This document shows, piece after piece, positions 42,134 through 42,688 of a DNA stretch of 64,000 nucleotides; within the stretch, counting starts at the first letter, position 1; each line of letters starts with the position of its first letter. Source of the DNA: an uncultured Lachnospiraceae bacterium (GTDB lineage Bacteria; Bacillota; Clostridia; Oscillospirales; CAG-272); NCBI GenBank assembly GCA_964403505.1, contig CAYOFP010000005.1, positions 7,655 to 71,654 of the forward strand, read 5' to 3'. The notes beneath the pieces were generated by a model. It was given only the letters and a program-made list of their open reading frames with translations, had not been told where the DNA came from and made no database searches. The position numbers and the translations under genes are program-made.

Positions 42134-42166
42134 GTTTTTGGATTGAGGGATTTGAACCTGCGTAAA
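42134..42166 (-). repeat. X module, locus B distal copy
   Basis: The minus strand reads TTTACGCAGGTTCAAATCCCTCAATCCAAAAAC. It is related to 42353-42391 and to the locus A copies. Confidence 0.7.
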
Positions 42167-42202
42167 TGAATTTGCAAATTACAGCACAACTCGTATATAT
42201 AA

Positions 42203-42279
42203 TTAATCGCTTTGCGAAGCAAAGCTACCGATTCTCTTATCTTTTCTCTCTTAGTTTTTCTCCGGAAAAAAGTCGCTTG
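42203..42279 (-). pseudogene. relic of the NUDIX-cassette 3' end and its downstream hairpin
   Basis: The minus strand reads CAAGCGACTTTTTTCCGGAGAA…GTAGCTTTGCTTCGCAAAGCGATT. This matches 14497-14547 of locus A, which is the end of the NUDIX CDS plus the GCTTTGC-TTC-GCAAAGC hairpin. No intact ORF remains. Confidence 0.7.
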
Positions 42280-42352
42280 ATTTTTTAGAGAAGAAAGAAG
42301 AACGAGAAGAGAAGAGTGAAGAGTACAAAAAGAAAAAGATGTATTTGTGTTT

Positions 42353-42391
42353 TTGGATGATGGTTTTGAACTCTCGTAAACCAAAAACAGA
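42353..42391 (-). repeat. X module, locus B proximal copy
   Basis: The minus strand reads TCTGTTTTTGGTTTACGAGAGTTCAAAACCATCATCCAA. It aligns with 13905-13943. Confidence 0.8.
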
Positions 42392-42562
42392 ATGAAATCG
42401 TTCGCTTTGCTCACGATGAAATCCTCACTCTGTTCGGATGAAATCTTCGGCTACGCCTCAGATGAAATCAAATCCACCCATCCGCCGTCGAGGCGGATTT
42501 CATCCCCGCAGGGGATTTCATCCATCGCAGATGGATTTTACCCACCCGCAAGGGTGGATTTA
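42392..42562 (-). repeat. tRNA-proximal hairpin/linker array, copy B
   Basis: Read on the minus strand from tRNA-Ser, it shows four ATCC..GGAT hairpins followed by four ATTTCAT-spaced segments. The central roughly 58 nt are identical to copy A except for 1 mismatch. Confidence 0.9.
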
Positions 42563-42565
42563 ATT

Positions 42566-42599
42566 GAAAAATCCGTCGACAAAAGTCGACGGATTTTTC
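42566..42599 (-). terminator. rho-independent terminator of tRNA-Ser
   Basis: The minus strand reads AAAAATCCGTCGAC-TTTT-GTCGACGGATTTTT. Confidence 0.85.
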
Positions 42600-42688
42600 T
42601 GGCGGAAGGTGTGGGATTCGAACCCACGTGGGCGTGAACCCAAACGGTTTTCAAGACCGCCTCGTTATGACCGCTTCGATAACCTTCC
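42600..42688 (-). tRNA. tRNA-Ser (anticodon TGA), long variable arm
   Basis: On the minus strand the acceptor is GGAAGGT/ACCTTCC followed by G and CCA. The anticodon loop is CTTGAAA, the T-arm is GTGGGTTCGAATCCCAC, and the length is 89 nt. Confidence 0.9.

Follow-up and report, generated by a model that had tools for sequence, protein, structure and literature searches.

Positions 42134-42688 of the 64,000-nucleotide (nt) window analysed here (contig CAYOFP010000005.1 of assembly GCA_964403505.1, to which all coordinates without another label refer) carry a tRNA-Ser gene and, directly 3' of it, a hairpin-rich element, a second copy of which follows a tRNA-His gene in the same window. Judged from its sequence, the element is a multi-copy, non-coding, hairpin-rich composite situated where transcription units end, in particular directly 3' of tRNA and transfer-messenger RNA (tmRNA) genes. 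By its Rfam score it is a further member of the catalogued Gut-1 RNA family (RF01706), its wider architecture and genomic context being the more interesting result. The reading which we favour, with a probability of roughly 0.55, is that of a structured RNA module of gene 3' flanks, placed mainly after the CCA of tRNA and tmRNA genes, that would spread by recombination between its linkers.

The approximately 270 nt 3' of tRNA-Ser (42332-42599, minus strand) are homologous module for module to positions 13701-13981 on the plus strand, 3' of tRNA-His. Pairwise alignment gives one order for both loci, as the original prediction had it: a terminator, the motif (C/T)AA(C/T)TAAATCC, four hairpins, four segments spaced by ATTTCAT and a module termed X. 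The claim that the two copies are inverted paralogues is borne out. The repeat finder returned four inverted pairs, 13822-13883 / 42414-42475 (62 nt, 97% identity, 2 mismatches), 13906-13965 / 42332-42391 (60 nt, 82%, the X module), 13748-13784 / 42514-42550 (37 nt, 86%, the hairpin block) and 14524-14552 / 42200-42228 (29 nt, 97%, the terminator hairpin of a NUDIX gene). The first of these is the near-identical central block, which had been put at about 58 nt and is 62 nt at 97% in opposite orientation; the spacing of these main arms is 28,530 nt, and perfect identity between the window copies extends over at most 39 nt. The 55-nt pattern proposed for this block has exactly two exact matches, at 13829-13883 (plus strand) and 42414-42468 (minus strand), with none expected from shuffles. 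The window copies face opposite ways because the two tRNA genes do. The features of the tRNA-Ser locus, with hairpins numbered hp1 to hp7, are the following.

42600-42688, minus strand: tRNA-Ser(UGA) gene (ARAGORN; Rfam tRNA, 54.5 bits); the element begins right after the encoded CCA
42566-42599, minus strand: terminator of A-tract, hairpin and T-tract, bidirectional in form, GAAAAATCCGTCGACTTTTGTCGACGGATTTTTC (from the sequence; same layout in 25 tRNA-linked copies)
42492-42566, minus strand: Gut-1 RNA motif RF01706, hp1-hp3 with (G/A)UGAAAUC linkers (cmscan, 70.6 bits; gathering score 50)
42548-42557, minus strand: 5' strand of helix P1, AAATCCACCC plus the AAAT of the start motif
42482-42496, minus strand: hp4, 3' of the Gut-1 model region
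42470-42479, minus strand: segment M, GGGTGGATTT, the 3' strand of the 10-bp helix P1, which competes with hp1 (pairing counts of P1 and hp1)
42414-42475, minus strand: conserved 62-nt core (M, R1, hp5, R2, hp6, R3), 97% identical to 13822-13883
42391-42469, minus strand: reverse array hp5-hp7 with linkers GAUUUCAUC (27.1 bits for Gut-1 on the plus strand; motif census; family alignment)
42332-42383, minus strand: X module copy 1, beginning TTTACGAGAGTTCAAAACCATCATCCAAAAAC, tRNA T-loop-like, within the X-long motif of about 65 nt (second pair of repeat arms; motif comparison)
42287-42331, minus strand: polypyrimidine tract (polypurine on the plus strand), in place of the NUDIX gene body (from the sequence)
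42229-42279, minus strand: remnant of the NUDIX 3' end, its last approximately 27 nt lengthened by insertions rich in purines (local alignment to 14497-14523)
42205-42228, minus strand: NUDIX terminator hairpin GTAGCTTTGCTTCGCAAAGCGATT, terminator-like (29 nt at 97% to 14524-14552)
42121-42166, minus strand: X module copy 2, beginning TTTACGCAGGTTCAAATCCCTCAATCCAAAAACG, a direct repeat of copy 1 (motif comparison and alignment)

The tRNA-His locus has the corresponding features on the plus strand.

13434-13700, plus strand: cluster of tRNA-Gly, tRNA-Arg and tRNA-His (ARAGORN)
13701-13732, plus strand: terminator of A-tract, hairpin and T-tract (from the sequence)
13733-13804, plus strand: Gut-1 RNA motif (64 bits)
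13822-13902, plus strand: conserved core and reverse array, hp5-hp7 with R1-R4 (pattern and repeat searches)
13914-13981, plus strand: X module copy 1, in the full X-long form
14092-14547, plus strand: intact NUDIX gene (14092-14523; Pfam PF00293) and its terminator hairpin (14524-14547)
15249-15307, plus strand: X module copy 2, after the methyltransferase gene

In the Rfam scan of the window both copies exceed the Gut-1 gathering score of 50, the tRNA-Ser copy at 70.6 bits and the tRNA-His copy at 64 bits. The original prediction had missed that the hairpin block is a catalogued RNA family, as well as the second X at the tRNA-His locus. The Rfam model covers hp1-hp3 only (77 nt), with stems that end in A-U and U-G/A pairs and are joined by GAA; three consecutive covarying hairpins on conserved GUGAAAU linkers, as expected of RF01706, are found both in the model alignment and in an alignment of 38 sequences. 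The segments previously seen as spaced by ATTTCAT are a second hairpin array, in whose linkers, GAUUUCAUC, the Gut-1 linker GAUGAAAUC recurs in reverse-complemented form, and this reverse array matches Gut-1 weakly on the opposite strand (27.1 bits, below the gathering score). Gut-1 was defined from human-gut sequences as probably a non-coding RNA (Weinberg et al. 2010, PMC2864571). The raw seed alignment of that work (Additional file 4, Gut-1.sto) contains tRNA-CCA, terminator, motif and reverse array in the layout described here, and also holds a subfamily with linkers GUGAUAUU and reverse linkers AAUAUCAC, again reverse complements of each other; the text of the paper is silent both on the tRNA and terminator context and on this subfamily. 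No literature on Gut-1 after the 2010 paper was found. The window copies thus resemble Gut-1 in the UGAAAU-linked run of hairpins, in scores above the cut-off and in the gut-bacterial habitat. They differ in that the Rfam model is only the 5' third of a composite which adds hp4, a covarying long-range helix competing with hp1, and the reverse array. Gut-1 is typed in Rfam as a stand-alone small RNA; no promoter was found on either strand of the window copies.

With a pattern scan over one genome per species, at least 120 loci were obtained, most of them in Clostridia from gut or rumen whose assemblies bear the labels Acutalibacteraceae, Oscillospiraceae, Ruminiclostridium, Faecousia, Christensenellaceae and Eubacteriales; L-numbers (L001 etc.) denote these family loci from other assemblies. 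Among the matches listed, to which all family counts refer, at least 52 are composites of one architecture, approximately 170-200 nt long. The A-tract, hairpin and T-tract of the terminator and the start motif CAACTAAATCC are followed by hp1-hp4 joined by (G/A)TGAAATC, by a short joint and segment M, which repeats the 3' strand of hp1 plus ATTT, and by hp5-hp7 joined by GATTTCATC, up to the end GATTTCATT. Hairpin stems differ between copies and stay paired, while linkers are conserved.

Regarding genomic context, 25 of the 52 copies adjoin the 3' end of a tRNA gene, their first base being the one that follows the encoded CCA, and at least 15 different anticodons are represented (19 by automatic count, in which a few labels come from an upstream tRNA of the cluster). 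One further copy follows a tmRNA gene (L040:6644-7098), which extends the anchor to another CCA-ending RNA gene, three follow unannotated sequence ending in CCA, and six are cut by contig ends. Eight copies are without a tRNA and lie between a stop codon, or the nearest upstream end of an open reading frame (ORF), and a terminator; in at least four of these eight a substantial co-oriented ORF ends some 20-60 nt upstream, with no terminator between and a terminator 3' of the element, and in three of the non-tRNA copies the downstream terminator is shared with a convergent gene. Seen from the side of the tRNAs, 25 of the 33 tRNA-operon ends scored in the sampled loci carry the element, and L045 carries an additional degenerate copy missed by this scoring. 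A family of elements linked to tRNA 3' ends without a recombinase nearby, as had been proposed, is therefore upheld by the at least 25 of at least 52 copies after tRNAs, the many anticodons and the tmRNA case; the recent paralogy read into it is not.

The same terminator hairpin (e.g. GAACCCACATTTGTCTACGACAAGTGTGGGTTC) is found after five different tRNAs in five species, and near-identical or tandem copies are present within single contigs (L051, L047 and L053), both of which favour spread or homogenisation within genomes. Examples are the tandem copies at L047:1187-1710 and the near-identical pair at L051:3878 and 5217, which flanks a gene for a four-helix-bundle protein. Conversely, the same tRNA species carry the element in several species (Val-GAC three times, Leu-CAA three times), which favours long residence or vertical descent. 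The 62-nt core of the tRNA-His copy is 97%, 95% and 94% identical to those of L028, L041 and L038, all from other species, and since the core is as similar to other species as between the two window copies, its identity reflects conservation rather than recent exchange. As the most conserved part of the family, the near-identical block loses its value as a sign of recent duplication or as a purpose-built recombination substrate. Its longest exact run, 39 nt, is short for homologous recombination. The left halves of the window copies are only 76% identical and of different subtypes, the tRNA-His one being closest to L037 (87%) and the tRNA-Ser one to L053 (90%), and left and core types combine differently among copies; with left halves each closer to copies elsewhere, the window copies are best seen as old paralogues of a mosaic family.

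Pairing was counted in the 38-sequence alignment. The first bases of the array (AAAUCC and a further four that vary) and segment M form helix P1, 10 bp with a span of about 85 nt, in which pairing holds in 97.9% of cells, with covariation at three pairs (GC to AU, 22/15; CG to UA, 24/12 and 23/9); no shuffle or slid register came close to the observed pairing. The local hairpin hp1 of the Rfam model is paired in 95.6% of cells with two covarying pairs, and it uses the 5' strand of P1, so that P1 and hp1 are mutually exclusive helices. In a direct parse of 42 copies, P1 is complementary at 10-11 of 11 positions in 33, at 9 in seven and at 8 in two, and hp1 is poor (at most 4 of 7) in 17. Forward and reverse linkers are exact reverse complements, and they change together: the variant GGUGAAAUC pairs with GAUUUCACC in L011 and L044, the same combination is found by reading of the sequences in L083 and L122, and the GUGAUAU subfamily goes with AUAUCAC as GUGAAAU goes with AUUUCAC. 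RNAalifold folds the linkers back on each other, with AU, GU and GC, and no AC, at the variable position.

The RNA would be on the tRNA strand, because the non-tRNA copies sit upstream of terminators and, in at least four of eight, shortly 3' of a co-oriented ORF, because of the G.A bias of hp5 and hp6 and because of the U.G closing of hp1. The tandem G.A mismatches of hp5 and hp6 are purine-purine on the tRNA strand only, where the folding is better in 29 versus 3 and in 20 versus 3 cases, respectively; hairpin energies favour the tRNA strand for these two hairpins only. Of the 38 sequences, 21 close hp1 with a U.G pair.

Several observations weigh against an RNA module. Linker complementarity fits pairing, and equally one binding motif present in both orientations, the counts being too small to separate the two. 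At the level of motifs the element has dyad symmetry, both ends reading TTTTCAA(C/T)(T/G)AAATCC, which also fits a repeat of DNA, and the triloops are UUC in the first array and GAA, GCA or GUA in the second, mirror-image loop classes such as an inverted duplication of the first array would give. In the tRNA-linked copies, both window copies included, the tRNA and the element are separated by a strong terminator, and no sigma-70-type promoter was detected on either strand of the window copies and of eight non-tRNA copies; with a terminator upstream and no promoter, transcription of the tRNA-linked copies rests on read-through. Any function assigned to the module is a guess. If it is nevertheless an RNA module, it would be transcribed on the tRNA strand, by read-through of a leaky first terminator or as a 3' untranslated region (UTR), and the transcript would fold into seven local hairpins plus one of two mutually exclusive long-range pairings. 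It might serve as a structural module of 3' ends, either as a barrier to exonucleases or read-through or as a processed small RNA (sRNA), and recombination between conserved linkers would carry copies from one 3' flank to another and reshuffle them, with no recombinase belonging to the element itself.

The X modules lie beyond the element. The X-long motif of about 65 nt consists of GAGTTCAAATCC, a few bases, CGAAA, GCCGAAAATATCTTTTTT and then TACACAAAA; in other species X either directly follows an element (L045, L052, L120 and L036) or immediately precedes the terminator that belongs to a further copy (L028 and L115). No Rfam match was obtained for X and X-like motifs, and X was rejected as a coding sequence, since the small ORFs of the opposite strand that end in R4 do so in different frames according to species. 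Direct repeats of X bracket a NUDIX-methyltransferase cassette at tRNA-His and its remnant at tRNA-Ser. By alignment the cassette is intact at the former and decayed at the latter, positions 14497-14552 aligning with 42200-42279 if purine-rich insertions are allowed; the decayed content predicted for tRNA-Ser, i.e. the NUDIX 3' relic, the terminator hairpin, the polypyrimidine tract and the second X, was located in full. X may be a hot spot for gain and loss of small cassettes. An X-related 47-nt direct repeat (85% identity; 56848-56894 and 57775-57821) brackets a cassette of a Phd-like antitoxin and a Doc/Fic toxin, which has its own promoter and terminator and looks like an insertion that duplicated its target. 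Stretches of low GC content (12000-18000 and 36000-48000, 0.40-0.44 versus about 0.50 elsewhere) adjoin both tRNA-linked copies; the accessory genes of one comprise NUDIX, methyltransferase, Fe repressor and VanZ, those of the other Fic, helix-turn-helix (HTH) proteins, DUF6514, phosphoadenosine phosphosulfate (PAPS) reductase/DUF3440 and HipA, which suggests islets of acquired genes at both sites. Other repeats of the window include a second intergenic family, represented by an 88-nt direct repeat (90%; 18198-18285 and 49362-49449) of two GC-rich hairpins, the second flanked by runs of T and A, and four copies of the palindrome ATGCAATTTATATATTGCAT at 62903-63136, spaced 64-69 nt, a layout reminiscent of operators or iterons. 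The arms of a 27-nt inverted repeat (93%; 44293-44319 and 44542-44568) resemble the T-arm plus acceptor end of a tRNA, and just downstream of this repeat there is a partial cobalamin riboswitch match (44576-44704, 40.3 bits, model positions 48-166).

A serious rival to the RNA module is a DNA-level repeat similar to repetitive extragenic palindromes (REP) and bacterial interspersed mosaic elements (BIME), to BOX, or to miniature inverted-repeat transposable elements (MITE), the palindromes acting as single-stranded or cruciform DNA that is copied near terminators by an enzyme encoded elsewhere, with any RNA being incidental; we hold it possible, at well below an even chance. REP/BIME of enterobacteria and BOX of pneumococci are thought to stabilise upstream RNA or to bind DNA enzymes. 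Like them the element is a short, multi-copy, modular extragenic palindrome in alternating clusters (four hairpins of one orientation, three of the opposite one) near terminators at 3' ends. Its copies are mosaic and include tandem and partial ones (L047, L046, L051 and L053), and the same terminator hairpin is found after different tRNAs in different species. Furthermore, its ends are motif-level inverted repeats, all seven to eight linkers of an element change together between subfamilies, as in repeats co-evolving with a protein, and the two arrays have C:G-closed loops of the GNA type on opposite strands. GNA loops closed by C:G are very stable in DNA. However, in REP the hairpin is conserved and its GTAG head is read by the REP-associated tyrosine transposase (RAYT), whereas here linkers are conserved and stems vary freely while remaining paired; no conserved hairpin with a GTAG head was found, nor, among those proteins of the window that were scanned, a RAYT (Y1 HUH) gene. 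REP also lack the marked bias towards tRNA and tmRNA 3' ends, and double-stranded DNA has no need of a covarying 10-bp helix over some 85 nt. As for MITE-type ends, TTTTTCAACTAAATCC and GGATTTCATTGAAAA match at about 14 of 16 positions when one of them is reverse-complemented, these bases doubling as the T-tract of the terminator and sometimes as a -35 box. No direct repeat indicating a target-site duplication is present at the borders of 45 aligned copies and no transposase lies near either window copy. The presence on the same tRNA species across species fits long vertical descent, and copies are practically missing from plasmids and uncommon in viral contigs: plasmid records gave no copy, and in IMG/VR three of 120 pattern matches are true copies, two of which follow a tRNA or tRNA-like 3' end. 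The contig L002 (MT836382.1, 'UNVERIFIED: Bacteriophage sp.') gave one partial match, at its end (1-110), where it begins inside a copy of the reverse array and an X-like motif; a piece of bacterial DNA recovered with a virome may account for its phage label. On the RNA side, a parallel is 3'ETS-leuZ of E. coli, an sRNA from the 3' external transcribed spacer of a tRNA transcript, which lies before the operon terminator and includes it; the element would likewise sit in a tRNA transcript trailer, but here the terminator comes first, and there is no similarity in sequence or structure.

It is very improbable that the element is a cis-regulatory array of protein sites (9-nt linkers at about 22-bp spacing) upstream of the promoter of the next gene. 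The spacing does correspond to about two helical turns, and about a quarter of copies have a near-consensus promoter directly after the element, its -35 box inside hp7 or right after R4. In some twelve loci such a promoter at hp7/R4 or just after it drives a gene for a four-helix-bundle protein of about 118 amino acids (PF05635 23S_rRNA_IVP, TIGR02436; closest solved structure 2rld), the loci with a PF05635-type gene after the element being L053 (3300-3530 region), L011, L025, L051, L058, L067, L072, L080, L092, L098, L105 and L110. PF05635 includes Avd, the accessory protein of diversity-generating retroelements; no literature linking PF05635 genes to tRNA flanks was found. Yet most copies, both window copies included, have no such gene or promoter after them, the eight non-tRNA copies have a terminator rather than a promoter downstream, and binding sites need neither covarying palindromic spacers nor a long-range helix. 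Repeats of type III toxin-antitoxin systems (ToxI-like) were rejected, as they require near-identical tandem units of 34-45 nt together with ToxN/AbiQ, and the units here are of about 22 nt with variable stems and only sometimes a following gene, of PF05635. We also consider unlikely, though less remote than the regulatory array, the view of the original prediction, in which the copies are remnants of a mobile element integrating at tRNA 3' ends, the X modules attachment scars and the 58-62-nt block a working substrate for inversion of the 28.5 kb between the copies. The inverted repeats are real, X is tRNA T-loop-like and brackets the NUDIX cassette or its remnant at both loci as direct repeats, low-GC accessory genes adjoin both copies, and the related 47-nt repeat brackets the Phd-Doc cassette at 56.8-57.8 kb. 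The 3'-end position, the accessory genes beyond it and the T-loop-like fragments nearby are indeed shared with the genomic islands which tyrosine integrases place at tRNA and tmRNA genes. In distinction to such islands, there is no integrase or other recombinase among the ORFs checked near either copy, where the neighbours are the accessory genes named above from NUDIX to PAPS reductase/DUF3440, and many tRNAs are used, with at least 15 anticodons, unlike the choice of a site-specific integrase. Nor is the 3' end of the adjacent tRNA repeated beyond the element: in 29 tests of the last 32 nt of the tRNA against up to 3.3 kb past the element, 26 were not above shuffles and three were above by only 1-2 points. 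As to an insertion primed by the tRNA, all 43 tRNA genes in the loci encode CCA, which therefore cannot mark those bearing the element. Family-wide conservation explains the identical block, and exact repeats of 39 nt, or near-identical ones of 62 nt, are near the lower limit for RecA-type recombination. No orientation polymorphism was found: exact-protein look-ups (NUDIX, a tetratricopeptide repeat protein and a flanking NTP-transferase) led only to short contigs of sample SRR9335148, the only other assembly with identical proteins, which break at the tRNAs, the exact look-up of the Fic protein gave no record, and a metagenome scan with a 32-nt core gave two loci, both of other species. GC skew and gene strand are without a clean flip at the repeat positions: the skew is -0.11 over the first 14 kb, then close to zero, and it does not go back to its former value at 42.4 kb, while gene orientation is mixed beyond 14 kb.

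Preferring the structured RNA module, a more specific proposal can be made, which is tentative and to which we give clearly less weight than to the general one. Gut-1 would then be not a free-standing 77-nt small RNA but the opening third of a larger module (about 170-200 nt) with two states and dyad symmetry. Oscillospirales-type gut bacteria would put this module behind the encoded CCA of tRNA or tmRNA genes, and into a number of 3' UTRs as well, and it would act with a sequence-specific factor, for which the Avd-like four-helix-bundle protein that is often encoded directly 3' of it is a candidate. If true, the two-state module would be a genetic element of a new kind, associated with genes for stable RNAs. 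For the window itself, the supposed inversion substrate and decayed mobile element becomes two copies of the repeat of a conserved family. Gut-1, an orphan motif since 2010, now has a genomic address, namely tRNA and tmRNA gene ends as well as a number of 3' UTRs, together with a fuller architecture, a competing pair of helices and a recurrent neighbour gene, and these features make its function testable in a cultured strain of Oscillospiraceae or Acutalibacteraceae.

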